This document shows positions 1-45,200 of a stretch of 64,000 nucleotides of DNA, in pieces. This stretch comes from Escherichia phage vB_EcoP_G7C: the sequence record NC_015933.1. The stretch is one strand, 5' to 3'. The translations under genes and the position numbers were made by a program. Numbering within the stretch: position 1 is the first letter of the stretch; each line of letters begins with the position of its first letter. The notes beneath the pieces are model-generated. The model made no database searches. It saw only the letters and a list, made by a program, of their open reading frames with translations, and was not told the DNA's origin.

Positions 1-88
1 TGACAGGGGCTACACCCTTACACGTTAACTACCCCCCCGGTATGTTGACTCATGGGTGTACTACCCTACCCCACCTTACACCTTACAC

Positions 89-101
89 GTTGCTCCGCAA
101 C
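89..101 (+). promoter_or_regulatory. Candidate virion-RNAP early promoter hairpin (gttGCTCCGCaac; 5-bp stem, 3-nt loop; template strand GCGGAGC)
   Basis: Perfect 5-bp inverted repeat around TCC loop; identical GCTCCGC core recurs at 503, 1228 and 5221, each upstream of an early + strand gene; downstream TTATGGA shared with the 1228 copy. Confidence 0.6.
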
Positions 102-144
102 TTATGGACATGTCGTCCTATCATCAACTATTGGAGCTATCATC

Positions 145-468
145 ATGACTACTACCGCTACTGTACGTATGACCGCAGGAACTCTGCTGGGTACTGTTAA
201 CTCTGCTGCTACTACTGTTGCAGATTCATTCGGTGCTGCTACTAAAGCAGTTGGTATGCTTAATTCTTACGTAGCTACTATGGCAAAGAAACAAGCCATT
301 CGTACTAAATTAGAAATGCATACTTTCGAAAACAAATTAGCTGAAGAAACAGCTATGAACGAGACTATGCGTAAGAAAAGTATCGAAGAATTCTGCAAAG
401 ACCCAGAAAACGCTCGTATCTACAACGCAGAATATTCAAGAATAATTGACATCCTGTCCCAGGACTAA
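145..468 (+). CDS. Hypothetical early protein (107 aa; track ORF 52..468 trimmed to the internal ATG downstream of the promoter hairpin)
   Basis: In-frame ATG at 145 preceded by GGAG with 8-nt spacer; the longer track ORF would begin upstream of the promoter hairpin. Confidence 0.5.
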   Translation: MTTTATVRMTAGTLLGTVNSAATTVADSFGAATKAVGMLNSYVATMAKKQAIRTKLEMHTFENKLAEETAMNETMRKKSIEEFCKDPENARIYNAEYSRIIDILSQD

Positions 469-472
469 CCAA

Positions 473-494
473 AAATCCCCAGAAATGGGGATTT
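473..494 (+). terminator. Strong hairpin (AAATCCCCA-GAAA-TGGGGATTT) just after the first early gene; possible terminator or RNA-processing site
   Basis: 9-bp perfect stem with GAAA loop, but no clean T-run follows. Confidence 0.3.
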
Positions 495-502
495 AAAACC
501 TA

Positions 503-515
503 AACGCTCCGCGTT
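503..515 (+). promoter_or_regulatory. Candidate virion-RNAP early promoter hairpin (aacGCTCCGCgtt)
   Basis: Same GCTCCGC core with compensatory flanking stem bases; 5-bp stem, 3-nt loop. Confidence 0.5.
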
Positions 516-641
516 GTTTCGAAGACAACTCCGGTGAACTACTGCAAGGCTAAACCCATAGGAGGCTCTTCGAGCCCCTTTTAAGGGCATTAGATAGATA
601 GATAGTCAGTTCTGTATAAAAAGATAAAAGAGATACCTACT

Positions 642-788
642 ATGAGCAAACTAAAAAACGCATTCATGCTGATTGTCAGTGTCCTTGCACTTGTTGCTAT
701 GGTTTCCGTATACATTGGAAAACCTCTGGTAAACACTGACTATGGTAATGGTCAGAAAGTAAAATCCATCCTGCTAATGGATAAGTAA
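642..788 (+). CDS. Small hydrophobic protein (48 aa, MSKLKNAFMLIVSVLALVAMVSVYIGK...), below ORF-track size cutoff
   Basis: ATG with AAGAG-like RBS upstream; single predicted transmembrane helix; same orientation as neighbours. Confidence 0.3.
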   Translation: MSKLKNAFMLIVSVLALVAMVSVYIGKPLVNTDYGNGQKVKSILLMDK

Positions 789-842
789 AAACTGGGCTGT
801 TCCACAGCTTACGGATACATTTCAACCAATTAGGAGACATCC

Positions 843-1058
843 ATGCACGCAGAAAATATCCGTATAATTGAGAATTGCTTCAGCGATAAACCAGTAGACC
901 TCAGCAATGCAAGAAGGTCTACAGATAAAGAATACAGAGAGTTTCTCTCCTTACTCGATGAATACCGTATGCAAGGGCATGTTGAGTTACATGCCTATCT
1001 GCATAACTCAGGCTACTTCATGGATAAACTGGAAGCTGAAACAGGCTGTCCATTCTAA
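843..1058 (+). CDS. Hypothetical early protein (71 aa)
   Basis: ORF with AGGAG RBS 7 nt upstream of ATG. Confidence 0.5.
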   Translation: MHAENIRIIENCFSDKPVDLSNARRSTDKEYREFLSLLDEYRMQGHVELHAYLHNSGYFMDKLEAETGCPF

Positions 1059-1227
1059 GTAAACCATTCCCTCTTAGGAGGGAATTAGCCATCTTTAGAT
1101 AGTTCAACTAGAAAGATAGCTATTCGCAGAAGATGCGAAGCAGCATCTACTTTAAGATAAGTAAAATGTCCCTGAATCTAAATCACCGTAAGAAACTCTG
1201 GATATCTTACATACCCTAAAAGACAAC

Positions 1228-1240
1228 GACGCTCCGCGTC
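1228..1240 (+). promoter_or_regulatory. Candidate virion-RNAP early promoter hairpin (gacGCTCCGCgtc)
   Basis: 5-bp stem, TCC loop, followed by TTATGGA as in the copy at 89. Confidence 0.6.
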
Positions 1241-1348
1241 TTATGGATGATGTAAATGCATCCACTAATCATTGAAATTTTATCCTTTTGTTTGGGTGTT
1301 CTCACCGACGAGTTCACCCGTAAATCACATAAATCTGGAGAGTACAAA

Positions 1349-1732
1349 ATGTCTATTCAAAAATTCACTTTCGGTCAATCTAACGCTGCTGCTACTTCTA
1401 CTGCTAAAGCGGATAAACCTAAAGCTCAGTTCTGGCTGAACATTGGTTATGTAGCTAATGAAGGTTCCGATGATGAGAAATTCATCTCGCTGCCTACTGG
1501 TATTCCACTGGATACTCAGGAACCGCTGCCTACTAACAGCAGCAATGCTGACTTCCGTGCTATGCGTTGTGCACAGAACGATTTGTTGGAACAGTTAATT
1601 GAATATGCTCAGAACCTGAAACCAGGTGAAGAAGGTATCATTAACCTGCAAGTTCAACTTCGTCGTGTGAAAGCAGAGGCTGCTGACATCCCAGCAGACG
1701 AGAATAAATATGCTCGTAAACTGACTTTCTAA
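1349..1732 (+). CDS. Hypothetical early protein (127 aa; track ORF 1256..1732 trimmed to RBS-supported ATG)
   Basis: GGAGAG RBS then ATG at 1349; upstream in-frame extension overlaps the promoter hairpin region. Confidence 0.5.
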
Positions 1733-1741
1733 TCAACAACT

Positions 1742-1770
1742 GGACTCCCTTCGGGGAGTCCTTTTATTTT
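1742..1770 (+). terminator. Intrinsic terminator (GGACTCCC-TTCG-GGGAGTCC + TTTTATTTT)
   Basis: GC-rich 8-bp stem, TTCG loop, T-run. Confidence 0.65.
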
Positions 1771-1835
1771 AACTATGCGATAAACTAAGTAGAGTGTAAT
1801 CCTACTTTTAGACGAAGAGAGACTAAGAGGTAAGT

Positions 1836-2330
1836 ATGAAGAAACCATATGGCTATTGGCAACAATCTGCTCACAATTTAGCCAAGATTCATGACCAATC
1901 TGATGCTCAGAGTAATGGGTACATATATGTAAAACATGATGGTAAAACCGTACTTTTACATGTGTGGATTTGGGAGCAAATCAACGGTGCTATACCGGAA
2001 GGGTATGAGATAGACCATGAAAATGGTATCCGTTGGGACTGTAGGTTAAGCAACCTACGATGCGTACCAAAGCTAATTAACCTAAGAAACTCAGCAAAAC
2101 AAGCTAACAATACATCTGGTACTACTGGTGTAAGTATCATTACAGATAGGGGCAGAGAATATTGGATTGCTACATGGAGTGAGCCAGTTACAGGCAAGAA
2201 GAGAATGAAGCGCTTCAGTGTACAGAAGAATGGCTATGATACTGCTAAGCAGCTAGCCATCAACTATCGTACAGAAGTTCTAAAAGATTTAATTAAAAAT
2301 CATGACTATACAGAACGTCACGGTATGTGA
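1836..2330 (+). CDS. HNH homing endonuclease with AP2-type DNA-binding domain (paralog 1 of 4)
   Basis: EIDHENGIRWDCRLSNLRCV HNH-like core; NTSGTTGVS...YWIATW AP2-like segment; close paralog of 33592..34089. Confidence 0.7.
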   Translation: MKKPYGYWQQSAHNLAKIHDQSDAQSNGYIYVKHDGKTVLLHVWIWEQINGAIPEGYEIDHENGIRWDCRLSNLRCVPKLINLRNSAKQANNTSGTTGVSIITDRGREYWIATWSEPVTGKKRMKRFSVQKNGYDTAKQLAINYRTEVLKDLIKNHDYTERHGM

Positions 2331-2407
2331 ATAGGGCTTTTCGACGAAGAGTCACTAAAACTTAAACGTAAACAGAAGCAGATAACTTAGAGTAAGGAGT
2401 AATCAAG

Positions 2408-2593
2408 ATGCGTGTACTATGTAACCGTTATAATCCAGCAAAGTTAATCGACTTTATGGAACCCATTGGTAGTCGTATGACTTATGCTGCTCGTTGGCAG
2501 GTATCCATAGCTGATAGTAGAGAACGTACTTATGACTACTTCTTTGTAGCTAAGCCTACTCGTAAACAAATCCGTAAACTTCACAAAGGATAA
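2408..2593 (+). CDS. Hypothetical protein (61 aa)
   Basis: ORF with GGAG RBS. Confidence 0.4.
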   Translation: MRVLCNRYNPAKLIDFMEPIGSRMTYAARWQVSIADSRERTYDYFFVAKPTRKQIRKLHKG

Positions 2594-2597
2594 TGCT

Positions 2598-2750
2598 ATG
2601 AAGCTACTGGCAGAGATTCTATGTATTTTATTAATGATACTGCTGGTAGCTGCATTTCCGTGGCTATTAGCCGTAGGTATAGTTATTGGTATGTTCCTAG
2701 CCAGAGCGAGTGATGCTCGTGGTAGGGATGAGCCAGGTGGAGATGTGTAA
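2598..2750 (+). CDS. Small membrane protein (50 aa, MKLLAEILCILLMILLVAAFPWLLAVGIVIGMF...), below track cutoff
   Basis: Hydrophobic ORF with AAGGA upstream. Confidence 0.3.
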   Translation: MKLLAEILCILLMILLVAAFPWLLAVGIVIGMFLARASDARGRDEPGGDV

Positions 2751-2782
2751 ACACTGCCGGAAGGGTATGTACGGAGGAACCA

Positions 2783-2956
2783 GTGATATTCACTAACATT
2801 GAAGATGCCATTGAAGAATGTATCTTCCGTAGATATCACACTGGAGTACAGAAACGACACTATGGTGTTGTGCAACTCAATGGCTATCAAATGGCTGTAA
2901 GAATTGTACGTAACAATAAACCTTTTAACTTTATGTGGAGTACTAAACATGCGTAA
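2783..2956 (+). CDS. Small hypothetical protein (57 aa, GTG start)
   Basis: GGAGG RBS 5 nt upstream of GTG; + strand like all neighbours. Confidence 0.3.
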   Translation: MIFTNIEDAIEECIFRRYHTGVQKRHYGVVQLNGYQMAVRIVRNNKPFNFMWSTKHA

Positions 2957-3077
2957 GTCATTAATCATGGGAACCAAAGCTGACGTACAGAAGATGAAAG
3001 AACGTCTGGCTGCTAAGAAACAGGCATCTGAACCAGTACGTAAGATTGTTACCTTCAATCATCCGTGCATCAAATAG
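2949..3077 (+). CDS. Small basic protein (42 aa, MRKSLIMGTKADVQKMKERLAAKK...)
   Basis: GGAG RBS; start overlaps the previous stop; followed by terminator. Confidence 0.3.
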   Translation: MRKSLIMGTKADVQKMKERLAAKKQASEPVRKIVTFNHPCIK

Positions 3078-3085
3078 TAAGGAGT

Positions 3086-3116
3086 CCTCCAATAGGAGGC
3101 TCCTATTTTTTATTTT
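3086..3116 (+). terminator. Intrinsic terminator (CCTCC-AATA-GGAGG + T-rich tract)
   Basis: Stem-loop followed by TATTTTTTATTTTT. Confidence 0.5.
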
Positions 3117-3154
3117 TGAATAGTTAGACATGTATTTAAATAGGAGAAAGAACC

Positions 3155-3463
3155 TTGAATGAAATAGTATGCATACTTCCACACTTAGCTAAAGTAGCTG
3201 ATAGGAATATACGGATACATTTACCCTTCCCATTAAGTAATCCATTTACTCGTAATGAAAGAACCACAGTAGAGGATATAGAGGTAGCTTATGAGGCTTA
3301 CCTTCGCAATCGTCTTATTAGTGGTGACAAATTAATTACAGCAGAGATGGAAAGGATTGCTGGTTTTGTCACAGATAGTACAAAGAAACCTGTTGGTTTA
3401 ATTGGTACTGAATCTGATGTTAACGTTATTCGTAAAATATTAATGGAGGCTCTAAGCCAATGA
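3155..3463 (+). CDS. Hypothetical protein (102 aa, TTG start per track)
   Basis: GGAG 8 nt upstream of TTG. Confidence 0.4.
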   Translation: MNEIVCILPHLAKVADRNIRIHLPFPLSNPFTRNERTTVEDIEVAYEAYLRNRLISGDKLITAEMERIAGFVTDSTKKPVGLIGTESDVNVIRKILMEALSQ

Positions 3464-3681
3464 TGTACATGAGCAATTATGGTATTTGCCCAGTCTGTAA
3501 GAAAGGACGTGGAGTTGCTAATCATAAGAAGTGTAGTCGTATATTGCAGAAACAACGGAACCAGGAAGAATGGTCTAAGGTGCTGGAAAATCAGCACAAA
3601 GAAGAGAATCAACAGATGGCTGTTAAGGCATCTACTCAACGTATTCGCCGTATTAACTATATACAAGGATACCAAAAGTGA
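3460..3681 (+). CDS. Hypothetical basic protein with CxxC motif (73 aa)
   Basis: ATGA start/stop overlap with upstream gene; CPVCKK motif. Confidence 0.45.
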   Translation: MMYMSNYGICPVCKKGRGVANHKKCSRILQKQRNQEEWSKVLENQHKEENQQMAVKASTQRIRRINYIQGYQK

Positions 3682-3935
3682 TTATTACATTCCCTGTAAC
3701 TAAATCATTTAACTATATGGGACAAACTATTGAAGTCCCATTATGGGTTAAATATGTAGCCTTATTACCTCGTCCTCAGAAGAGTAAGAATGCCTCACTA
3801 ATTGGATTTAGTAGAAAGCCTAAGCTAACTGAAAACTGTATTTGGAAGTCCAGCGGCAGACAAGAAGAAATTGGTTTTTGTGACTATGTACCTCAACCGA
3901 ATACAGTATATCTAACCCTGGAGAAAGTAGAGTGA
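3678..3935 (+). CDS. Hypothetical protein (85 aa)
   Basis: Start overlaps upstream stop in a tightly packed gene run. Confidence 0.4.
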   Translation: MIITFPVTKSFNYMGQTIEVPLWVKYVALLPRPQKSKNASLIGFSRKPKLTENCIWKSSGRQEEIGFCDYVPQPNTVYLTLEKVE

Positions 3936-4246
3936 ATAATATTGTAGTAGTACATGATAATACATTTACTGACGTCGATAAGATGATGCGTAATATTGAT
4001 TATGTATCTCAGACTAGTAAAGCATTTAATGAAAAGTTCATTATTTACTGTGAACCAGAATCACCGCTGGTTCCCGTATTAAAGGAAGCTGGTCTACCCT
4101 TCTCTACAGAGAACTTCCCAGAGGAACCAGAGTATATGATCACATTCATATATGACTTACACGATGGCTCTCCTGCTAGTGAACTGGCTATGAACCAGTG
4201 GAGTAGTAAACGTCCTGTATATGCTTTCCAGGTACTTAAACCATGA
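3932..4246 (+). CDS. Hypothetical protein (104 aa)
   Basis: Start overlaps upstream stop. Confidence 0.45.
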   Translation: MNNIVVVHDNTFTDVDKMMRNIDYVSQTSKAFNEKFIIYCEPESPLVPVLKEAGLPFSTENFPEEPEYMITFIYDLHDGSPASELAMNQWSSKRPVYAFQVLKP

Positions 4247-4485
4247 TCTATGAAGAATATTATGTATTCAAAAAAGGAAATGATTTTATAGCTATGCCCA
4301 ATGATTACATGGATTGGCATACAACTCCTGTATTAAAAGAAGCATTTTCCGTACCTAACCTGGAAGAGGTTAATAAAGTAATGAACGGAGTAATGCTAAC
4401 AAGAGGTATGGCTTACAAAATAGACGCATTAGAAGGAGCTTCTGTATGCAAAGTAACTACATCCATTGAGGTACTTAAACCATGA
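4243..4485 (+). CDS. Hypothetical protein (80 aa)
   Basis: Start overlaps upstream stop. Confidence 0.45.
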   Translation: MIYEEYYVFKKGNDFIAMPNDYMDWHTTPVLKEAFSVPNLEEVNKVMNGVMLTRGMAYKIDALEGASVCKVTTSIEVLKP

Positions 4486-4862
4486 AAGCTATCTCATTAG
4501 GTGATAACACCAATACTCTAATGGGTGAAACTGCTCGCTCAATTACTATTGTTAATAAACATCATGGTAAATCCGGTGAGTATATTGGGCGTGGCTCACC
4601 GTTAGGCAATCCATTCATCATTGGTAAACATGGAACCAGAGAGCAAGTAATTGCTAAGTATAGAGTCTGGCTGCAAGAACAGATTGATAAAGGTAATCCA
4701 GCTGTACTGGATGAACTCAATCGTCTTGGTAATAAAGCCATTGACGAGAAAGGGCTGGCCTTACAGTGCTTCTGCTATCCCAAACCATGTCATGGTGAGG
4801 TTATTAAAGAGAAGCTCGTTCGGGCTATGTATAACTATTTTGTAGAAAATCCAAAAGGGTAA
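4482..4862 (+). CDS. DUF4326-like protein (126 aa)
   Basis: GRGSPLGNPF...CFCYPKPCHGEV motifs resemble the DUF4326 family; not search-verified. Confidence 0.5.
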   Translation: MKAISLGDNTNTLMGETARSITIVNKHHGKSGEYIGRGSPLGNPFIIGKHGTREQVIAKYRVWLQEQIDKGNPAVLDELNRLGNKAIDEKGLALQCFCYPKPCHGEVIKEKLVRAMYNYFVENPKG

Positions 4863-4865
4863 CTA

Positions 4866-5216
4866 ATGAAAGAAATCTTAGTATTCACTACCAATGTACT
4901 TGGGCAGCATACCAATGCTGCTGCCAAGTTAGCTTATAAGAAGCACGGTGCACGTTGGGGTATGGCCTACGGTCATTATGGTAATAGCTTTGCCATTCCA
5001 GTAAGGGATGGCAATGGTAACCGAATTAAAGAGGGTGCTATCTATGGCTTCGTTGAAGGCTTTATTTCCTATGCATCTACTAATCCACAGTGGGATTTCA
5101 AAGTAATGGGAGATGACTTTCTGGACCCATACCTGTTCAATAATGTTACTGGCAATGTACTGTTACCAGAAGCATGGCGTAAATACTTAGGTGATGCTTA
5201 CAACTACTGGTCATAA
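4866..5216 (+). CDS. Hypothetical protein (116 aa)
   Basis: ORF in co-oriented early gene run. Confidence 0.45.
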   Translation: MKEILVFTTNVLGQHTNAAAKLAYKKHGARWGMAYGHYGNSFAIPVRDGNGNRIKEGAIYGFVEGFISYASTNPQWDFKVMGDDFLDPYLFNNVTGNVLLPEAWRKYLGDAYNYWS

Positions 5217-5220
5217 GAAG

Positions 5221-5233
5221 GGTGCTCCGCACC
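5221..5233 (+). promoter_or_regulatory. Candidate virion-RNAP promoter hairpin (ggtGCTCCGCacc) upstream of RNAP II genes
   Basis: Same GCTCCGC core, 5-bp stem, 3-nt loop, about 30 nt upstream of the RNAP II start. Confidence 0.55.
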
Positions 5234-5264
5234 TTGTGGTAATTAACTAATTGGAGAATATGCG

Positions 5265-6083
5265 ATGTACTCATCTATCGAACATCAGAAGCAACTCGAA
5301 GTACTATTCAATAAAAATCAGCTCCTGCCAAGGATGCGAAAAGAGTTCGAGGACTCCAAAGAAATTGACTTTAAGGCATTCGCTGCCTATTTGGAAATTG
5401 ATTATAAACTGCTCATTGATGCAATGGTGCAGATTGCCCTACATAAACGTGCTGACATCCAGACTATGATTGGCTCTCTCATGAGTCACTCAGATGATGC
5501 TCAGTACATCGCTGACTGTCTGTATAAGATGGCAGAGAATGACTGCTTCAACTATGACCCTACCATCGACAAGTTCGGTGTTATCTATGAGATTAGTGAA
5601 GATGTTCAGATGGAACTGGAAGCATTCCAGTATCCATTACCTATCGTAAGTGCTCCTAATCCTGTCAGAACTAACAGGGATACTGGTTACTACCAGACTA
5701 AGGGAAGCATTATCCTCAAGAAGAACCATCATGAGATGGATGTCTGCCTTGACCATATCAACCGTATGAACAATCAACGTCTCTGTATTAACTGGGATGT
5801 TGCTAACTATGTAAAAGACTCTCGTCCTAATATGGATAAACCCAAAGAGGGTGAAACCCGTCAGGACTATGAGAAACGTGTTAAAGCCTTTGAGAAGTAC
5901 AGTCGTACCGCTAAGGAAGTAATGGAGTTAGTGACTCAGGAAGGTAATAACTTCTCACTAGCGCATAAGTACGATAAGAGAGGGAGAACCTATGCCTGTG
6001 GATACCATATTAACTATGCTGGGACGTCCTACAACAAGGCAGTGGTTGAATTTGCAGACAAAGAACTAGTAAACGAGGATTAG
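5265..6083 (+). CDS. Phage RNA polymerase II, N-terminal (small) subunit of a split T7-like RNAP
   Basis: 272 aa ORF preceding the ORF that carries the T7-RNAP catalytic motifs; size and order match the two-subunit RNAP II of N4-type phages; GGAG 8 nt upstream. Confidence 0.6.
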   Translation: MYSSIEHQKQLEVLFNKNQLLPRMRKEFEDSKEIDFKAFAAYLEIDYKLLIDAMVQIALHKRADIQTMIGSLMSHSDDAQYIADCLYKMAENDCFNYDPTIDKFGVIYEISEDVQMELEAFQYPLPIVSAPNPVRTNRDTGYYQTKGSIILKKNHHEMDVCLDHINRMNNQRLCINWDVANYVKDSRPNMDKPKEGETRQDYEKRVKAFEKYSRTAKEVMELVTQEGNNFSLAHKYDKRGRTYACGYHINYAGTSYNKAVVEFADKELVNED

Positions 6084-6084
6084 T

Positions 6085-6666
6085 ATGAAGACATGTTCAG
6101 TATGTAAGAAGAACTTGCCTCTGGACATGTTCAATAAACAGTCCACAGGTAAGCAAGGTGTAAGGGCAGACTGTAAAGACTGCCTTAAACGATTTATCCG
6201 TTCAAAACACGGAGTCATTAATCAGATGTACTCCGGTTGTATCAGTAGAACTAAGAAGAAGGGGTTTACTCCTGTATCTTTCACAAAGGAGGAACTAGAG
6301 AAATGGGTGTATTCAAGTAAAGAATTTCACGAATTATATGATGAATGGGTATCGAAAGATTACCCAACTAACCTAAAGCCGAGCTTAGATCGGTTGGATG
6401 ATTATAAAGGTTATTCACTGGACAACATTCGTATTGTTACAGCGAATACCAACGTAAAAAGGTACTACTCTGATGCAATCAATGGTATCAACACCAAATC
6501 AGCTAAGCCTGTTGAGCAGTATTCACTAGATGGTAAATACATTAAGACGTTCCATTCACTTAGTGCTGCTGCACGAAGTGTTAAGGGTATACCCTCTAAT
6601 ATTAATCAAGTAATTAACGGTACATATGCGCAAGCATATGGCTATAAGTGGAAACTAGGAGCCTAA
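6085..6666 (+). CDS. Homing-endonuclease-like protein (N-terminal Cys-rich zinc-finger-like region, degenerate HNH-like core, C-terminal NUMOD-like DNA-binding motif)
   Basis: CSVCKK...CKDC; LDRLDDYKGYSLDNIRIV aligns with the DHxDxNxxNNxxSNLRxV core of the AP2-HNH paralogs but lacks the His; C-terminal GIPSNINQVINGTYAQAYGYKWK. Confidence 0.5.
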   Translation: MKTCSVCKKNLPLDMFNKQSTGKQGVRADCKDCLKRFIRSKHGVINQMYSGCISRTKKKGFTPVSFTKEELEKWVYSSKEFHELYDEWVSKDYPTNLKPSLDRLDDYKGYSLDNIRIVTANTNVKRYYSDAINGINTKSAKPVEQYSLDGKYIKTFHSLSAAARSVKGIPSNINQVINGTYAQAYGYKWKLGA

Positions 6667-6667
6667 G

Positions 6668-7885
6668 ATGCAGATTTTCACAGCTAAAGAATATTTAAAA
6701 ATTGATATTGCCAATTCTTACGGGCTGGATAAGAAGACATGGGATGAGCGTATTAGCTGGTTCGATGAGAATGAAGCTAACCTGCTTAATCTGGTAGATG
6801 AAGCTGAAGAATCCGCACTGTTCTATGCTGGCGTAAACGCATGGAAAGACATGAAAGCCGGTAAACCTATCGGTTATGCCGTAGCTCTGGATGCTACATC
6901 ATCTGGTTTGCAGTTACTGGCTTGCCTGACTGGTGACCGTTCTGCTGCTGAACTATGTAACGTAGTTAACTACATGGGTGAGAACGGTAAGCCATTACGT
7001 CGTGATGCTTATACAGTTATCTATCACAAGATGCTGGACATCCTTGGTGAATCATCCCGTATTAAACGTAGTGATACTAAGCAGGCAGTTATGACTGCGT
7101 TCTATGGTTCAGAAGCTAAGCCTAAAGAAGTATTCGGTGAAGGTATTCGTCTCAAGACTTTTGAGAATGTAATGGAAACAGTTGCTAGTGGACCTTGGGC
7201 ACTGAACAAGTTCTTACTGCAATGTGGTAACCCGGATGCTAACCGTTACGTATGGGTACTGCCTGACAACTTCCATGCTGTCATTAAGGTCATGGTTCCA
7301 GAAGTACAGACCGTTAACTTCTTAGGTAAGCCATTCGACATCACCCGTATGGTACAGGGTACTGAAGATAAGACTCGTATGCTCTCTGCTAACATCACTC
7401 ACTCTATTGATGGGATGGTGGTACGTGAAATGCTGCGTCGTTGTAACTTCAACATGAACCAGGTGAACTATGTTAAGTCCCTCTGTGAAGGAACCAGTGA
7501 GTATATGCTGGGTACTAGCGGGAACTACGACATGGTTAGTCAACTGTGGCATAACTATGAGAAATCAGGATTCCTGTCTACCCGTATCTTTGATTATCTG
7601 GATTCTGACTCAATTAAACTGGTTGATACAGATGTAATCATGGCTATGATTAATACTATGCCTAAGAAACCATTCCCTGTAATGACTGTACATGACTGCT
7701 TCCGTTGTCATCCTAACTACGGTAATGATCTGCGTCGTCAGTACAATCAGATTCTGTCTGACATTGCTAAGAGTGATCTACTGGGCTTCATCCTGTCTCA
7801 GGTACTGGGACAAGAGTTCTCTGCTGGTAAGCTGGATGACAGCCTCTGGCAGGACATCCTTGAAACAGACTATGCGTTAAGTTAA
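6668..7885 (+). CDS. Phage RNA polymerase II, catalytic (large) subunit, T7-like single-subunit RNAP palm/fingers
   Basis: ALDATSSGLQ (motif A), RSDTKQAVMTAFYGSEAKP (motif B), VHDCFRC (motif C) align with T7 RNAP DGSCSGIQ / RSVTKRSVMTLAYGSKEFG / HDSFGT. Confidence 0.8.
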   Translation: MQIFTAKEYLKIDIANSYGLDKKTWDERISWFDENEANLLNLVDEAEESALFYAGVNAWKDMKAGKPIGYAVALDATSSGLQLLACLTGDRSAAELCNVVNYMGENGKPLRRDAYTVIYHKMLDILGESSRIKRSDTKQAVMTAFYGSEAKPKEVFGEGIRLKTFENVMETVASGPWALNKFLLQCGNPDANRYVWVLPDNFHAVIKVMVPEVQTVNFLGKPFDITRMVQGTEDKTRMLSANITHSIDGMVVREMLRRCNFNMNQVNYVKSLCEGTSEYMLGTSGNYDMVSQLWHNYEKSGFLSTRIFDYLDSDSIKLVDTDVIMAMINTMPKKPFPVMTVHDCFRCHPNYGNDLRRQYNQILSDIAKSDLLGFILSQVLGQEFSAGKLDDSLWQDILETDYALS

Positions 7886-7892
7886 TAAACTG

Positions 7893-7927
7893 GCCTCATA
7901 CCTTCGGGTATGGGGCTTTTATTTTTT
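7893..7927 (+). terminator. Intrinsic terminator after RNAP II genes
   Basis: CCTCATACC-TTCG-GGTATGGGG stem-loop then TTTTATTTTTT. Confidence 0.65.
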
Positions 7928-7944
7928 GCTTGGAGGTAGTCAAC

Positions 7945-8127
7945 ATGACAGACATCTATGATGTTATTACTAAAACTGTACTGATAGTTTTATCTGCTAT
8001 TGTGGTATTCACTATAGCCAATGTTCATAAATCCAAGTTTTCCTATTGCTACTATGGAGCATACTCTGCCGGTTGTTTTGTATTAGCCGGTTGGATAGCT
8101 TACTGGATTTACCGCATCAACAACTAG
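7945..8127 (+). CDS. Small membrane protein (60 aa from RBS-supported ATG; track ORF 7930..8127)
   Basis: GGAGG 8 nt upstream of ATG; two hydrophobic segments. Confidence 0.45.
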   Translation: MTDIYDVITKTVLIVLSAIVVFTIANVHKSKFSYCYYGAYSAGCFVLAGWIAYWIYRINN

Positions 8128-8156
8128 CCACCCTCATGGGTGGCTTTCTTTTTTAT
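8127..8156 (+). terminator. Intrinsic terminator
   Basis: AGCCACCC-TCAT-GGGTGGCT then TTCTTTTTTAT. Confidence 0.6.
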
Positions 8157-8201
8157 CAGCCTTCATAATAATTAGGCATATTTACTCAAGAGGATACATG
8201 T

Positions 8202-9023
8202 ATGCCAACCTTAAAGATTGCGTTTAATAAAACAACCAACGTTGCTATCGTGCTTGATTCAGATGGTAGTGTTCCAGATGGTTTTGCGGAAGTAGGTACT
8301 TTTGTACATCCTGATGCCACTTACCCTGATAGCTTAGTTATCTATCACGGTGTACGTGACCTGTTGTATAAACGTTCTGCTGAAGACCCTGCTGAAGAAG
8401 GTTTCTGGCCTAACAGCATCGTGGATATGCAGTCGATCACTATTACCCCACAACTGACTATTGCTACCGAACTGCTTAATGAAGTCTCTGCCATCGAAGG
8501 TGAAGATATTAACTGGCATATTGATGTAGCAGGTGGTAAAGCACCTTTTACCTATAAGTGGCAATACAAAGCAGATACTGATGATGCAGTATTCACTGAT
8601 ATTGATTCTGATGACAACGAATCTGCTGCTACTGCAACATTGACCATTAGTGGTGTAACCGCTGCTTCTGCTGGTACTTATAAAGTGATTGTTACTGATG
8701 CTAATGGAACCACGGTGGAAGATACCTCACTGCTGACTGTAAGCTACCCCGAAGCAAGCTCACTGGTAGCTACCCCAGATTCACTGGAACTGTCTGTTGC
8801 TGACGATACTACTGATGGCAAGACTGTAACCATCACTGCTTTGCCTGTCGGAGCGTCTGTTGGTACTTTATCTATCAAGACTGCTCCGGATTCTGCCCGT
8901 GCTACAGCTACCATTTCTGGTAACGTACTAACAGTTAAACCAGTGGCAGAAGGTGAAGCTACTTCTGTAGTAGTTACCAACGGTACTGTCGATGTAACCA
9001 TCGCTATTACTGTTGCAGAGTAA
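8202..9023 (+). CDS. Ig-like (Big_2-type) domain protein
   Basis: Thr/Val/Ala-rich beta-strand repeats (TVTITALPVGASVGTLSIKTAP...VVVTNGTVDVTIAITV) typical of bacterial Ig-like domains. Confidence 0.5.
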   Translation: MPTLKIAFNKTTNVAIVLDSDGSVPDGFAEVGTFVHPDATYPDSLVIYHGVRDLLYKRSAEDPAEEGFWPNSIVDMQSITITPQLTIATELLNEVSAIEGEDINWHIDVAGGKAPFTYKWQYKADTDDAVFTDIDSDDNESAATATLTISGVTAASAGTYKVIVTDANGTTVEDTSLLTVSYPEASSLVATPDSLELSVADDTTDGKTVTITALPVGASVGTLSIKTAPDSARATATISGNVLTVKPVAEGEATSVVVTNGTVDVTIAITVAE

Positions 9024-36222: not shown

Positions 36223-39200
36223 TTAGTTTACTAAGTTCATCCAAGGGTTTAGGTTGTGAGCACGAAGCCCCTGACCAAAGCCCCATGAGTAATCCAGACT
36301 ACCCTTAGCAGCAATACTAAAGATGTTGTCCTGAATAGGTAAGCCAACGTTACCAAACATGGTAGGAGTTGGAGCCAGCATCGCCATTGCTGCATGTACT
36401 GGGTTATTGCGAATCATGGACACTGCAACCTTAGCTGAACGAATCTTAAAGTTGTAGAACCACATTAAACCAACGCTTTCCATATACCCACGGAAACGGC
36501 CCGGCAGACGGTCATAGTTAATGAACTCTTCGGTTACACGTCCCAGTGCTTCTTCACGAGTCTTACCTTTACGCTGGGTCAATTCATCATAGATGATTGC
36601 TTTAGCGATAAAGTCAGAGTACTCAACCGTCTTCTGGATACCCTGGAACAGAGCAGTATCCTTAGTGATAAGTGCATAACGACCAGCAGCACGTACAGAC
36701 TTAGGTAACTTATCCGCCAGCTTTTCCATGTATTCGTGAAGTTTACCTTCAGTAATCAGGATGTCATCACGACCAATACCAGCATCTGCAATTGAAGAGA
36801 ACTCACCAGCTTCTATCAGAGGCCAGATACTCATACGCTTATGGCTATCAGTAATGGACTGAATCTCAGCCTTAAGTTTACGAATCTGGTTCGGGTTAGT
36901 AGCTGCACGTAATTCTGCTTCTGCATCTACCTGACGTAAACGAGATTTAAGGTATTGGTTAATCTCAGCAGTCTTCCGTGGAATGCTCTTAGCAATGTTC
37001 TTAACCGGTACACCACGAGCAACCATCTGGTAAAGGTTAGCCAAAAAGTTAACAACAGGTACGACTACTGACTTAACTACAATCAGAGTCTTAGCATCTT
37101 TAACTAAATTTTGAACCAGGTTCTCACCACCCATTAAGTACTTATAGGCACGGTTACCGGCTAAACCCAGAATAGCTTTTTTAAAAGTATTAAGCGTTTC
37201 CGGGGACCAACGAGAATTACCAGACCAAGCATCACCAATCGAAGCTGCACGATAGCCAAGTGCATCATTCAGCATGTCACGACGTACCCACAGTTCACCC
37301 TCACCAAACAGTTTTTCTGCTTTCCGTCGAGTTTCACTGTTCATCAGCTTAAGAGCATCAGCAGTTACTGGGTCCAGTTTAGAACCAAAAAGGTTCACGT
37401 ACTGGGACTTATTAGCAGCAGACATCTTAATGTCTTCCTTGTACATGCTATACAGGTTCTCAATCAGCATATCATTGAAACGCTGAGCCTTAGCTTCTTC
37501 CACCTGACGTCCACGCCATACACCAATTGCACGGGCAAGATGATTTTCACCTTCAATATGCTTCAGCATATTAGGGTTAATTGATTGCTCATAAGCAACC
37601 ACATCACCTTTAGCATTATATACAGGCAGCAGTGGTTCATTACCACGTTCACCACGAGCTAGTGCTTTAGCGATACGGTCTACAGAAGGCTTGTCAGTAA
37701 TACGACCAGCTACCATGGAACCCATAGTAAAGCCTGTACCGAGGTCTACACCACCAGCAGTATTACGAACGTTCTGTAGAATACCTTGTGAGAACGGAGC
37801 CTGTGCCTGTACTGGGGCAAAGTAGTAGCTACGTGCCAGACCTCGGTTAGCAGAGCTACCTTGATAAGTACCCAGACGAACATAGGACTTCTCTATCAAA
37901 TCACCAAACTCGCTATCTTCAGCAACAACCAGACTAACACCCTGTTTAGTCTCACTAGGGATATACCCTTTGTACTGGTTCAGGGTTGCACGCATATCAG
38001 ACTTGGCTTTAGCCATTTCATCTTTACGCTGCCCAACCAGGTAAGAAGTAGCAAAGTCCATTCCCTCAACTTCTGTCTGAGCCAGTGAAGATAACATCTC
38101 ACGGTCGGACTTGTTCATTGCTTCCAGTGCATACAGGGTAATAAGTTTATCCAGTTGAGCTACATCTACAATAGAACGAGTAGTCTTACGTTCACCCAGC
38201 ATACGAGAGATTGCAGTAGCATTACGCAGCAAGTTTTTACCGACTGTGCCATTAATCATGTACTGAGCCAGTTGCTTAGATTTACGGTTAATCAGAGGCC
38301 AGTTACGACCAGCTTGTTTCTGCAAATCTGCTTCCAGCTTATTCACTTCACGGTCAACAATCTTCTGGTCTGAAAGCAGGTCACGAATTTCAGCCAGAGA
38401 CATGGTGTCACGCAGGACAGCTAAGTCAGTTTTACCCATACCAGTGTACATTGCTTTCCACTCATCCTTAGTCAGCTTACGGCTGAACTTAGATGCGATA
38501 GTGGTAGGCAGGTGTTCACGGAACTGCTGACGGTCAGCCTGCACCTGTGCACGGACTGCTTTAATCAAATCGTATACAGAAGCATTGCTCTTAGTACGAC
38601 CGGTTAAATCATTAACCAGGTCATGGAAAGGTTGCCATACTTTACCCTGGTTCATTGCAACCATAACGCCTTCAGCTACGTTTGCACCATTCTTCTCTGT
38701 AGCAATAGCAGCCATTAGTTGTGCAGCATGAGCAGCACCTTTGACCAATGGGTTCTTGGTATTAGCTGCAACTTCACGAGCACTTTCTAAAACACGAGTA
38801 GACAGTACATCAATAGAGTCCACCAAATACTGGTTAGCACGGTCAATAGCATTACCACTAGGAGTAGCAACGGAATCATAGAATGACTGTGCATTTAGGC
38901 TAGTCTGCATGATTGTTTGAGCCAGTGCATCCATACCTTCCTGTACGTTGGTAGCTTTGGTATCACCTGCTACACGAGCATTCAGACTAGCCATTGCAGC
39001 AGTACCAATGTTAGTCAGCATTGCATCAACGGTATTCCCAGATTTCTTATCTGCTTTCATAACAGGAATGTTAGCCAGTACGTTACGTACCTCTTCACTT
39101 ACCATTGCCAGACCAACAAAGGTAGGCAGTATTGAAGAACGACCCTGTGCATCAAACTCAATATTGTTAGCACCCATGATGGTATCGAACTTCTGCTGTG

Positions 39201-42200
39201 CATAGTAACGGTCAGCAGGGTTAGTACTATCTGGGTCAGTCATGAATGATTCAACAGTCAGGTTCTTAGTAACGTGTGCATAGTATTCCTGTGCACGAGA
39301 AAGAGCAGCCGGACTAATAGCAGCTTCAGTAGCGAGTGCAGCAACAATGTTAGTAAAGAGACGCTGCTCCTGCATATTCATAGTGAAGCCATGAGCCTGA
39401 ACATCACGGGTTACTTTAGTTGCGTGCTTTTTCGCATCAGAGAACTTACCTTCACGGATTACTTGCTGTACTGGTTCTGAACCAATGTAGTTAGTAATCA
39501 GCTTATCAAATGTCTGTCCTAACTCTTCCAGACGGGTATTGTCACCATATGCTTTGTTATGGAACAAAGTAGTATCTTTGGCTACAGCAGCAGTAGGAGC
39601 CTGCCCACGCATAACAACTGAAGAGTTAAACAGTAAGCCAGAGAACATATCATCAGCATTAGCAGGTGCTTCTTCACGACCAAATACCAGTCGCTTGATT
39701 GCTTCATATACAGACTGAATCATAACTTTCAGTGCTGTGGTCTTCTTCTGCTTACTAATTAGCTCCTGGTTAGTTAAACCCCATGCCATGTACTCATTTA
39801 ATGCAGCAGCTTTAGCTATTGCTGGTTCAATATAGCCATTAGACAAGTAGCCGTTAATGGTATAGAGGGCATCGGCATATGCTTCACGTACTTCCGGAGA
39901 TTCATCCTTAACATCCAGAGCAAGGAACTGGTTCATCAGGTCTTCGATATTCTGGACTGCTTCGTTAGGAGTACCCTCATAGTGAGCCAGTACAGATTCA
40001 AAAGTAGAAGCATGTACCAATTCATGAACCAGAGTCTCTAAGGAAGGGGTGACTAAGTAGATGGTCTTATCATCAAAGTTAGTCCAGCCGTATGTATTAC
40101 CTGCTTCGGCAGCTTCAATATCTTCTGGTGCTGGACGGGTAATGTTCTTCTCAATAGCGTAAGCATCCAATTGAGCAGGAGTACCGTAAACAACCTTGTA
40201 GTCTTTAGCAGCAAGGGATTTCTGTACTTCTTTCAATACTGCTTGCTGTTCAGGAGACATTTCTTTAGCCAGCTTAGTGATAGCAGTATTAGACAACAGA
40301 CGTACACCAGACTTAAGTACACGACCAACTTGTTCCATTGCTGGCACTTCTTTAACAGGTGCTTCTTTCACTGGTTCTGCTTTAGCAGCACGTACTGCAT
40401 CACGACGCTTGTTTAATTCAGCATCGAACAGTTCGTTCAGCTTAGCTACTTGCTGGTCTACAGTCAGACCTTCCAGAGAAATTTTACCGTTGTTCACATA
40501 TGGAGCACCTACAGCAGCCATCTGGTCAACAGTAGTCTGTACTTGGTTCATTACTTTGTGGCGAATATCTACACCCAGAGCAATGTTTCGCAAGTTACGC
40601 TCAATGAGGTTAACACCGGAATTCTTAATCATATCAATCTTATACTGCCTGTCCCCTTCAACACGACTGATATGAGAAAGCTGTTCAAAATCTAAAGCGG
40701 AACGGGCAATGTCATCAATTGTCTTATCCGACAACTTATCAAAGTCTACGTTCTTCATGAACTTAGAGAAGGAGTCATACACGTTCTTAATAGGGTTGCC
40801 CTGCCAAGAAGTATATACAGCCTCGTTAGCTTTACGACTTGCATCAGTGATGTCACTGATACCAATGTTCATACCATCAAAGATTTTCAGGGTATTCTTA
40901 GGAGCACCTTTCATAGTAGAAAGGGTCTGCATCATCATGCCATCACCAGTACCAATGGTCATAAACGGAATACCTGCAACACCTGCTTGTGAAGGAGCAT
41001 AGATGCTCATTGGCACACGCATACGGTCATCTAAGTTGGTAGCCAGTACTTGGTTAGCAACGTCAGTACTCTCACTGCCAGCAAGGTAGAAAGTCTGTGA
41101 GCCAGTCTCAATCATTGGGGCCAGTGGAGATAATGATTCCTGGATTTCATTCAGTTCTTTCTGTGTTAAGAAATCACCCTTCTTCCAGGTTGGGTCTTTT
41201 TCTTTTTCTGCTAGCTTAGTCTGTACTGCTTGTTGGAACATATCCTGCAATACCAGAGACTGAATCTGAGTAGCCTTCTGCAAGTTCTCAGTAGAGTACA
41301 TCAGACCTTCACCAACAGTATTACGGATACCGGTACGCATTGGTTCAACGAACAAATGGAGCATGTTCTCTTGTAAGTTCTTCAGAGCATTACCGGATAC
41401 GGTAAATTTCTGAGGGTTTAACTTACCAGTCAGAGCACCATCTACTTCCTTAATAAATAACTTACCTTTGCGCTTAGCTGGAATTTTACCAGTCAGTGCT
41501 TCCATAGAAGTAAGGAAAGTATCCAGCATAGCCTGAGCATCAGCCTCAGACGCAGCCTCCTTACCAAACATTGCCATAGCCGGGGAAATGCTAGGGTCAG
41601 CAGCACGTGCTTGCAGAACGTCGCTGAAGCGTTCGTAGATGGTGTCAGTAATTGCACCGACTATATTACCAGCAATACCACGTGCACCAGCACCATAGAT
41701 GGTAATGGTAAGCGGGTTTTTAGCGATACCACGTTTCAGGTCCAGAGTACCATCTTCATTCAGGTTAAAGTCTTTAATGAACAGGTCCATTAACTTCTGG
41801 AGATGATTTATCTGGTTTATAACTGGAACGTTGTTACGGTAAGTAGTACGTAACGCATTCAGTGCTTGTTGCAGACCATTGGTAGATGCTTCATACAAGT
41901 CAACATTATCGTCGATAGAACAATGTTCGTTCATCGTTTTACCAGCACGACCGAAGAACAAACCACCTTTGGCAGTATTCTTAATCCAGTCTGGGGTGAA
42001 CTTACCACCAGTCATTAATACCATTGCGTTGATTGGGCCGTTGGTTACACCATCAGCTTCAACGTACAGAGGGGTAGTAAAATTAGCACGGTCATCACTG
42101 TTCAGGTAACGGGCATATTCCATCAGGGCCATGAGAGCTACGAAGGATTTGTTATCACCCAGAGAGGTTTTCAGAATATCTACTGCATCAGTAGGTAAAT

Positions 42201-45200
42201 AACCAGACTTATCAAACTCAACCATCATATCAACAGCAGGTTTCAAATTACCTTCCAGAGCTTTGGTCAGATTTTCAGACATAGCTTCACGGGACATTTT
42301 ATGTACCTTGATGCCCAATGCCTGAGCCAGACCTAACTGGAAGTCAGAGAATGCTTGGCTGTTTTCATTACTCAAGTCGATAGTGGAGAAGGTTGGCAGA
42401 ATTGCTTCACGAACCAGTTTACTGGATTGTGGGTTATTCTTACCAAGCATCTGCATACGACCTACACGGGTCATGTTGTAACCGTAGTGAATGGGGGTAT
42501 CCAAACCATTCTCTTGTTCTTTTAGCTGATTAATTAAACCGAACAAAGAATCATATGCCATAGATACCGATAAGTTCTTACCTTCCAGAGATTTGGCAGT
42601 GTTTTCATTCAGCAAATCAGGATTAAGAGAACCAGCACCCATCAGTTCCAGAATGCCGTCTCGGCCTAATGCTTCATAGAAGTTAACCATCGGCATGTGT
42701 ACACGGAACTCCGTAGCCTGTTCAGCTTTCAAAGCAGCTTTCTGTTCCGGGGTATTCCTAACAGCAGGGTTACGTAACTGAGTTTGAGCCACGGAAGGAA
42801 TGTCATCACCGAAGTACGTTTTCTCTTCCGGATTTACCAGCACAGCTTCCTCAATTGCTGTAGGGAAATTATTAATAGGGTCTTTATCTGCCAACTTATT
42901 AATAGTGTACAGACCAATAGTCTTATTAGAGTCCGGGTCAATCTCAGACACATCCAGCATAGTCTCAGTAACTGCACCCATCTCGATGAGGGAAGACAGA
43001 ATCTCTGTAGCCATTGCCGCTGGAATACCCTTGGTATAACCCAGTGGTGCATTAGGGTTACGGTTTAAACCCCAGTAGGATTCAATCTTTTGAGCCAGTG
43101 AGTTAGTAGCCTCAACCAGAGTCTGGGCATTCTCAAACTCAGTCAGAATACTTTCTGGTAACAGAGATGCATCTACACCAGTAATAGCAGCCACGTCTTT
43201 CATGTCTTTAATGGCAGCATTCTGTGTAGCAGTCAGTCGCCATTGCAGACCGGCAAGTACAGCAGTCTCTAACAACTGATCATTGAACTTAAAGGTATCT
43301 CCATCTTTCTCTACGATGTTAAGTAACTTACCACTTACCCAACGGTTAGCTTCAGTACCTTCTGCAAAACGTTTACCAACGTTCTTATTAGCAAGGAACT
43401 TAGCCAGTCGTTTAGACAGAGTAGCCTTCAGAGTTTCCCCAAAGTCCATCAAGTCTTGATAGCGTTCTAACACATCACCTGCGAGAACGTTATTTTCTTT
43501 TTGAGTGAATGCTTCAAAGCGAGCAGCAGAAGACAGTGCTTTCTTGATATCAGCCAAAGGAGATTCAGAACCAATGGTACGGGACTTAGGTTCTTCCGGT
43601 AGGGTAAATGCCTTCAGGAACTGGTTCGGTGTCTTCTCATTGTTATAGACAGGGAACACTGCTTCCATTCCAGAAAGAGGTTTGCCACCCACTGTATAGT
43701 CTGCTTTCAGCTGAGCCAGTGATACCTCATCTTCCTCCACGTTGTTAGTGTTAAGACCAGAGGTATCTACACCAACCAGAATATGTGCATTATTGGCTTC
43801 AACGAAAGATTGAACAGTATTGAATTGTTCAGCAGTCAGTTTCTGATCATCGAACAGCTGTAAGGACACAAACGGTTGTTCGCTGCCTTTATAGAACATA
43901 GAGCGAATAGCACCTGTATCCAGAGACATATCACGATAACCATCATGACCAAATACATCGGACAGGCTGATATGGTCGCCATTAGAGCCAACCACAGTAC
44001 CATCAGCAAACAGCCATGGACTCTCTCTACGATCACCATACTTATTAAGAGTTTCCTGTGAAATAGTATTTTCTTTCACATAAGCATCTCTTTCAGATTC
44101 GGTAGGTTGCTCGATGGTATCCTCATTAGTAAGGGTAGCATCATCTACAACCGGGCTAGCCTTTTCAGACTTAGGTACTTTCTCTTCCTGTACAGGTGTA
44201 ACTTCTGGCTGGGAGAATGTATTACGTACATAGTTCATAAAATCATTACGTGCTTGGGAAGGGGAAGACCATACTTCCCGTGTGCTACGTAAACTAAAGA
44301 TTCGACCTTCAGGAGTCATTACGTAAGGTACATTTGTTTTACCGTACTTAAATGAAGTGAGTACATCTGACTTACCAGTAACAGTGCTTTCCCCTGGAAT
44401 GACAATAGTCTTACCACCAGTAGAAGGAACAGCACGAACACCCTCAATATCCTTACCAAGAGAAATATACTCTTTACCGTTGTAATCAAAGTACTGACCT
44501 ATCTGCATATAGGTAGCTTGTTGCTTACCAGTAAACTCAGCAGTTTTCATCTCCGGGCCGTTAGGTACAGACGTACTTTCAGACTTAGGCTTAGATACTT
44601 TCTCTGGTTCTGACTTAGACTCTACAGTGTTAGGGGCAGTCTCTTTTGCTTCGACTGGTGCAGTTTTTGACTGTACAGTAATGGCTGGTTCCTGTGTTTT
44701 TACAGGTGTTTCATCAACCTGATTCACTGGTTCATTAGTCTGTTGGGACTGAGTGGCATTAAGACCACCTTGACGGAACTCTTTAACTACCTGGGCAGCT
44801 GGCTTGTTCAGACGTGAATCCAACGAGGTAACTTTCACATGAGAAACATTAAGCTCCGGGTAAGCCGTAGCAAGTGCATTAGCAATATCAGCTACGGTTT
44901 TGGCCTCCAGTGCTACTTGCTGGGCAAACTTAACAGACTTGGTATCATAAGGATTAACACCGAGGCCAGTACGACTACGTACCCATTCACGGGTAGGCGT
45001 GAGAGCCTGATAATGAACAGACTTATTCTTATCCGCATTCCCCGAAATCAGATGCTCATTCAACGCTCCGACCTTATTCTGCATGTGCTGGGCGAACTTC
45101 ATAAAATCGCTCAGATAAGCGGAAGCCAAATCGAAGTTACCAGAGTTATACGCAGAACGAATGCGTTTCGCATGTTGCAACGCAGAGTACTGTCCTTCAT

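Follow-up and report, generated by a model that had tools for sequence, protein, structure and literature searches.

Hairpins in the early region of Escherichia phage vB_EcoP_G7C as probable promoters for the virion RNA polymerase

The early promoters P1, P2 and P3 of phage N4, which are hairpins used by the virion-encapsidated RNA polymerase (vRNAP), were reportedly described by Haynes and Rothman-Denes in 1985, Glucksmann in 1992, Dai in 1998, Davydova in 2007 and Gleghorn in 2008, and the d(GCGNAGC) mini-hairpin DNA reportedly by Hirao and co-workers. I analysed a stretch of 64,000 nucleotides from Escherichia phage vB_EcoP_G7C (NC_015933.1, one strand; hereafter, the window). An earlier reading of its letters (the original prediction) had pointed to four hairpins with the core GCTCCGC, located at 89–101, 503–515, 1228–1240 and 5221–5233, as promoters of this kind. 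It is very likely that these hairpins are single-stranded-DNA promoters of the N4 type for the vRNAP, the one at 503 being an atypical extra copy.

In N4, P1 (GTTGCTTCGCAAC) lies at 90, P2 (GAAGCTCCGCTTC) at 559 and P3 (GCTGCTCCGCAGC) at 4548, and they sit 5′ of gp1, gp2 and gp15, respectively. An N4 promoter has a GC-rich heptamer centred at −11 and inverted repeats spanning −17 to −5; the conserved stem bases are essential, while the non-conserved stem bases are free if they are paired (PMC4496689). The stem of such a promoter has 5–7 bp and the loop 3 nt. Extrusion of the hairpin requires a G:C loop-closing pair plus the 5′ G and the 3′ A of the loop, and the vRNAP specifically recognises −11A/G, −10G, −8G and +1C of the template (PMC4496689). 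Promoters with a GGA loop are bound by the mini-vRNAP with a KD of about 2 nM (PMC13037366). In the N4 model of genome entry, as reviewed, entry of roughly the first 500 bp is followed by transcription by the vRNAP, which pulls in further DNA (PMC4496689). For Klebsiella phage KP8, four putative early promoters P1–P4 have been published (PMC6950046) and are annotated as regulatory features in GenBank MG922974. N4-like hairpin promoters are also known in the Pseudomonas phages LUZ7 and LIT1 and in Pectobacterium CB1-like phages; in LUZ7, mapping of the transcription starts confirmed them and showed that the RNAs start with G and that the early promoters number more than three, two of them in tandem (PMC3715699, PMC9163698, PMC6027278). 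The type of element is already known: it is textbook N4 biology, and reports on N4-like phages routinely describe analogous hairpins.

Four hairpins and the N4 counterparts of three of them

The four hairpins are exactly where the original prediction had placed them, with the sequences that it had given: GTTGCTCCGCAAC at 89–101, AACGCTCCGCGTT at 503–515, GACGCTCCGCGTC at 1228–1240 and GGTGCTCCGCACC at 5221–5233, all on the + strand. Each is a perfect inverted repeat with a 5-bp stem and a 3-nt loop, and single-stranded DNA folding gives the same 5-bp/3-nt hairpin for the template strands (GTTGC-GGA-GCAAC at site 89). The two strands of the 64 kb together contain exactly four copies of GCTCCGC. 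All are on the + strand in the first 5.3 kb, which make up 8% of the window, and none falls in an assigned coding sequence. The bare count is unremarkable (4 observed versus 2.81 expected) and was dropped as evidence because it is not significant; the signal lies in flank complementarity, strand and location. All four copies carry three perfectly complementary flanking pairs, while dinucleotide shuffles gave 0.05 such hairpins per window (Poisson P(≥4) of about 2e-7). The window contains 108 perfect hairpins with a 5-bp stem and a 3-nt loop, and no other 7-nt core is present in more than two of them. Six of the 108 have a TCC loop, and all six are on the + strand in the first 5.3 kb. The whole-window scan that had been suggested as a check found GCTCCGC at the four early intergenic + strand sites only. 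The original prediction would have been in doubt if the motif had been just as frequent in coding sequence or on the opposite strand; with one core mismatch allowed, no credible extra copy was found in either.

Sites 89, 1228 and 5221 take the positions of N4 P1, P2 and P3, since they lie before the homologues of gp1, gp2 and the small subunit of RNAP II. Site 89 is 44 nt 5′ of the gp1 homologue (145–468, + strand) and about 90 bp from the left genome end, with a predicted +1 at G106. Downstream of site 1228, the ATG of the gp2 homologue (1256–1732, + strand) lies 11 nt past the predicted +1, G1245, the same as in N4. Site 5221, with a predicted +1 at G5238, lies 5′ of the RNAP II small-subunit gene (5265–6083, + strand). 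The downstream flanks of the three sites are common to N4 (cttatggacatgt, ttatggatgatgtaaatgcatcc and ttgtggtaatta, respectively). Over the aligned flanks, P1 is followed by cttatggacatgtcgtcc in the window and cttatggacatgttgtcc in N4, P2 by ttatggatgatgtaaatgcatcc and ttttggatgaagtaatgcatcc, and P3 by ttgtggtaatta and ttttggtaatta. The proposed comparison with N4 P1–P3 was borne out for these three sites in position, core and downstream flank.

With the start of the hairpin set at −17, sites 89, 1228 and 5221 have every N4 feature described in PMC4496689, including −11G, −10G, −8G and the template +1C. The template loop is GGA (G at −10, the central purine at −11, A at −12) at these three sites, at site 503 and at a variant hairpin at 796. 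The G:C loop-closing pair (−9C:−13G) and −8G are present at all four GCTCCGC sites. Their template core, GCGGAGC, is a GCGNAGC mini-hairpin. The nucleotides at +1/+2 are GG at 106, 1245 and 5238, while site 503 has a non-template C at 520 followed by G521, as read from the sequence only.

The giant − strand ORF of the window (36223–47487), which the original prediction had taken for the polymerase acting on these elements, has a central domain homologous to the N4 mini-vRNAP. The central 1096 residues match the N4 mini-vRNAP crystal structures with E=0. The ORF has up to 3754 codons, counted from a TTG, and is longer than the 3500 residues of the N4 protein; its probable start codon is the ATG at 47469, with the translation MSTFDRLAGF. 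Contact residues were assigned from the printed alignment against the PDB numbering. K114, R119 and W129, which form the −11 recognition element, are kept in the window vRNAP, as are D901 and R904 of the specificity loop, which contact −9C/−10G and −8G. K268, K849 and K850 are also kept, and K267 of the β-intercalating hairpin is replaced by N. The giant polymerase ORF and its cis elements do lie in one window, and the reading of the GCGGAGC template core with its GGA loop as N4 vRNAP promoter architecture agrees with both N4 P1–P3 and these contact residues.

Are the stems maintained in related phages? The first 6 kb of the window matched 83 phage records by megablast (87–94% identity, patchy coverage). 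All 83 are N4-like phages of Escherichia, Shigella or Klebsiella, the majority belonging to the genus Gamaleyavirus (Schitoviridae, Enquatrovirinae). The window covers the leftmost 64 kb of the genome of a G7C/N4-like phage of Gamaleyavirus, Schitoviridae. The alignment with PhAPEC7 begins at base 1 of that record, and thus the window start corresponds to the conventional left genome end. A gp1 protein-anchored search of IMG/VR gave three loci only, and the relatives were therefore drawn from GenBank phage records. The early regions of 14 relatives were compared (N4, PhAPEC7, pSb-1, F22, Bas96, Mimir124, SP5M, Moo19, KP8, Kpn16-P2, Jgk1 and three IMG/VR contigs), and a more distant Erwinia phage was likewise fetched beside them.

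GCTCCGC was collected from the 233,030 bases of the window and the 14 related loci with no selection on pairing. All 52 copies have three of three complementary flanking pairs, and 51 of the 52 are on the + strand; the exception comes from the F22 record and lies in its left-end inverted duplication, which contains Ns. In 41 distinct hairpin instances, both core pairs are invariant, while the number of pair types is 3, 4 and 3 at the outer three pairs, with 43 double-sided changes and 100% of cells paired. Shifting the partner column collapses the pairing of this alignment, and none of 500 shuffles reached the observed covariation score. For example, the outer arms of P1 are GTT/AAC in the window, N4, F22 and KP8, and CAT/ATG in most Gamaleyaviruses. 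GG is found at +1/+2 in 40 of the 41 instances, site 503 being the sole exception. The outer stem is selected for structure only and the mini-hairpin core is fixed, in agreement with N4 mutagenesis. Selection for structure had been claimed from the four window copies, and it holds for the covariation at the three outer pairs. The GCGNAGC mini-hairpin explains the invariance of the two G:C pairs and of the loop G and A.

Inverted repeats 5′ of genes may also be double-stranded operators for a dimeric DNA-binding protein, and the present repeats are palindrome-like. However, their outer arms vary freely yet stay complementary, which points to selection of intrastrand pairing and not of a half-site sequence, and the GCTCCGC core is non-palindromic and strand-specific (51/52 on the + strand). 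The operator explanation is thus extremely unlikely.

Two records have a duplicated P1 region. Positions 1–330 of the F22 record are an inverted copy containing Ns at the left end, and the Jgk1 record has a 500-bp tandem copy with hairpins at 88 and 588. These artefact-like duplications probably result from mis-assembly of the P1-bearing terminal repeat.

Many relatives, distant ones as well as N4, Klebsiella phages, Moo19 and Jgk1, are similar by blastn to the RNAP II region from exactly the P3 core (5223–5224) onwards, while 5′ of this core their sequences are unrelated to the window. Thus, the P3 promoter and its gene move together, and a mosaic boundary lies at the hairpin core.

Promoter function would proceed as follows. 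By analogy with N4, the left genome end would be injected, host gyrase would then supercoil the DNA, and the inverted repeats would extrude under supercoiling. The template (−) core would fold as a very stable GCGGAGC mini-hairpin with two G:C pairs, a sheared G:A and an exposed central G, while the complementary (non-template) hairpin would be melted by host SSB, as in N4. The injected vRNAP would bind the template hairpin, with W129 stacking on −11G, K114 and R119 contacting −10G and −11G, and D901 and R904 contacting −9C/−10G and −8G. Initiation would occur on a template C 11 nt past the loop centre, giving early RNAs that start with GG at 106, 1245 and 5238. From the resulting transcripts, gp1, the gp2 cofactor and both subunits of RNAP II would be made, and RNAP II would drive the middle programme. 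P1 of Mimir124 falls within its terminal repeat (1–403), and the position of site 89 is likewise within the terminal repeat of relatives. Such a P1, located in this repeat at a distance of about 90 bp from the left genome end, fits the N4 entry model.

Instead of being promoters, the hairpins might act within RNA or be intrinsic terminators, whether for the − strand or, in + strand transcripts that read through, as signals for processing. In a consensus scan, the hairpins at 503, 796, 1228 and 5221 are flagged as terminator-like when read on the − strand. However, no convincing − strand genes that could be terminated were found in the early region, and the stems are 5 bp with 3-nt loops, as opposed to 8–11 bp in the genuine terminator-like hairpins nearby. 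Nor does a terminator role explain the asymmetry and invariance of the core, the identity with mapped N4 promoters or the constant position of GG, 11 nt past the loop centre. This explanation is extremely unlikely.

Several points weigh against the promoter assignment itself. Promoter activity in this phage is assigned by homology. Nearest-neighbour DNA folding gives just −3.7 to −4.7 kcal/mol (z-scores between −1.8 and −2.7), in an energy model that does not capture the stability of mini-hairpins. The other points concern site 503, which lacks the template +1C (gtttCG, with the non-template C at 520), is a singleton with no conservation in the relatives or collections searched, and is separated from the next ORF at 642 by a terminator-like hairpin. 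The statement in the original prediction that each copy sits just upstream of an early gene or of the RNAP II operon therefore holds for 89, 1228 and 5221, and fails for 503 because of this intervening hairpin.

The hairpin at 503 and the segment around it

The fourth hairpin (503–515, + strand) has a perfect recognition core and is lineage-specific. When the window was aligned with F22, pSb-1, PhAPEC7 and N4, it was found that about 85 bp of the spacer between gp1 and the next gene are exclusive to the window. If the diverged end of gp1 is included, the unique segment extends to about 100 bp (approximately 456–555). First in it comes AAAUCCCCAgaaaUGGGGAUUU, a strong terminator-like hairpin at 476–497 (−13.4 kcal/mol, z-score −4.1), and Jgk1 carries a hairpin of the AAAUCCCCAgaaaUGGGGAUUU type directly after gp1. 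The 503 hairpin follows, then about 40 nt that are unmatched, and then a terminator-like hairpin at about 561–578 that is common to relatives. With its two tandem terminator-like hairpins, the segment looks like a mosaic recombination junction.

A distant-mode blastn search of the segment against 50,697 phage records (E up to 10) gave one 19-nt match at chance level and otherwise recovered nothing but the terminator hairpin of the Jgk1 type (32 nt, E=6e-3). Two 22–24-mers from the 503 hairpin and its downstream flank were also searched for as exact matches in IMG/VR and the JGI metagenomes, and neither was found. A short-word blast of the segment against the window and all loci returned the promoter core and its upstream context only. 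The hairpin with this context, ttaaaacctaAACGCTCCGCGT, is identical at 20 of 22 positions to the accessory-gene promoters of KP8 and Kpn16-P2, ttaaaaccaaGACGCTCCGCGT, and the outermost pair has changed on both sides relative to ttaaaaccaaGACGCTCCGCGTC of these two phages, from G:C to A:T. It is most likely, to judge from this similarity, that site 503 was acquired by recombination from the 'aaaaccaaGACGCTCCGCGTC' promoter family, which precedes accessory genes in relatives.

Does site 503 still function? It may be a non-functional or nearly silent remnant of the recombination that created 456–555, with little early transcription, and I consider this slightly less probable than an even chance. 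Such a remnant agrees with the failure to find a counterpart in any relative or collection searched, and with the tandem terminator-like hairpins, the first of the Jgk1 post-gp1 kind, which look like a mosaic junction at the site. Its CG at +1/+2 departs from the GG of the other instances, and the N4 vRNAP specifically recognises the template +1C. Moreover, a terminator-like hairpin with a U-run lies about 40 nt 3′ of the site, ahead of any ORF. On the other hand, the 503 hairpin is perfect, and the double-sided change of its outermost pair relative to KP8 and Kpn16-P2 indicates that the stem has been maintained. The G at +2 (521) could act as a start, and extra promoters are common among the relatives, with 3 to 5 copies per Enquatrovirinae genome fetched in full. 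Whether the site is a weak extra promoter or a remnant stands at roughly even odds. In the minimum-free-energy fold, the 5′ end of an RNA from site 503 pairs with the downstream terminator-like hairpin, a possible antiterminator pairing, but the z-score is only −1.56.

The variant hairpin at 796 and the early gene layout

The list of hairpins in the original prediction was incomplete: the four sites are real, but a conserved variant was omitted. This GGA-loop hairpin at 796–808 (+ strand), GCTGTTCCACAGC followed by ttacGG, is intergenic and lies 5′ of the ORF at 843–1058. It is identical in F22, pSb-1 and Moo19, where the bases immediately upstream differ, and is conserved across the genera Gamaleyavirus and Moovirus. 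It has the template −11G, −10G, −8G and +1C. Its loop-closing pair is T:A and not G:C, and the core is GTGGAAC; hence it is without the GCGNAGC mini-hairpin, which N4 promoters need in order to extrude. A weak or variant vRNAP promoter may be present at site 796. A further explanation, unlikely on the present evidence, is that site 503 gives a phage-specific early RNA of about 60 nt, or acts as a polymerase-binding decoy or pause site, and/or that 796 represents a second, weaker class of vRNAP promoter. If true, either departure could reveal something new about vRNAP specificity or early regulation.

Two other hairpins were rejected as promoters. A TCC-loop hairpin at 452–464 (+ strand), TCCTGTCCCAGGA, lies inside gp1 at its 3′ end and was created by window-specific substitutions, the relatives having TCCTGACTAAAGA. 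It lacks −8G, −9C and +1C and probably arose by chance. On the − strand, a near-hairpin at 1132–1144 with a GCTTCGC core forms only two of the three outer pairs and is not followed by GG. The long spacer ahead of P2, where it lies, also contains a + strand inverted repeat, TTCGCAgaagaTGCGAA, with which it overlaps.

The early gene order is the same as in N4: gp1, gp2, the RNAP II subunits and the giant − strand ORF. The gp2 homologue belongs to phrog_4099, the family of the N4 gp2-like protein. The RNAP II large-subunit gene (6668–7885) is followed by a terminator at 7892–7917. Two ORFs of the HNH/endonuclease VII type are present in the early region, at 1836–2330 and 6085–6666, and are likely to be homing endonucleases. 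The latter ORF separates the two RNAP II subunit genes, whose N4 counterparts are nearly adjacent; Bas96 and Mimir124 have one HNH/endonuclease VII type ORF at the equivalent place.

In positions 1–9000, sigma-70-like promoter sites are depleted (8 versus 24.6 ± 5.0 expected in shuffles), which fits an early region that is unread by the host polymerase. Terminator-like hairpins are enriched in the same region (22 versus 5.1 expected). A 15-nt motif, TAGATAGTTCAACTA, follows the early terminator-like hairpin at 1066–1085; it was dropped because it is unenriched in the window. An Rfam scan of 1–9000 at a permissive threshold gave chance-level matches only, and a tRNA search found none.

Comparison with the known systems

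No promoter annotation was found in the Gamaleyavirus GenBank records fetched, and the early-promoter annotation may be transferred to them. The result chiefly improves annotation: the early transcription units are fixed, and three starts are predicted at 106, 1245 and 5238.

As a structural motif and not a functional family, the d(GCGNAGC) mini-hairpin includes the template core GCGGAGC, while site 796 (GTGGAAC) is without the inner loop-closing G:C. The hairpin promoters of LUZ7, LIT1 and the CB1-like phages have the same architecture, with a stem of at least 4 bp and a 3-nt loop in the early region, but differ in core sequence. Transcription of LUZ7 starts 13–14 nt from the hairpin centre, as opposed to 11 nt in N4 and in the prediction for the window.

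Like the window, KP8 has four copies, in which the GCTCCGC core is identical, the arms vary and are complementary, and NNNN-GG follows. Both have an extra hairpin between gp1 and gp2, which precedes an accessory ORF in KP8; it is to this P2 of KP8 that the 503 hairpin and its upstream context are 20/22 identical. KP8 belongs to another genus (Kaypoctavirus), however, and its extra promoter lies about 20 nt 5′ of the ORF and has GG at +1/+2, neither of which is the case for site 503.

N4 P2 and P3 share with the window the identical GCTCCGC heptamer, the 5-bp stem, the 3-nt loop and the template GGA. The +1 spacing, the GG start, the three genome positions and the homologous downstream flanks of N4 are also those of the window. 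On the other hand, N4 P1 has a GAA loop (GCTTCGC), while P1 of the window has GGA. The fourth copy at 503, with its non-canonical +1, has no counterpart in N4. N4 P2 and P3 can reach 7-bp stems, while those of the window fold as 5 bp, and vRNAP K267, which helps to melt the base of the 7-bp stems in N4, is N in the window. The outer stem sequences differ between the two phages, always with matching changes on both arms.

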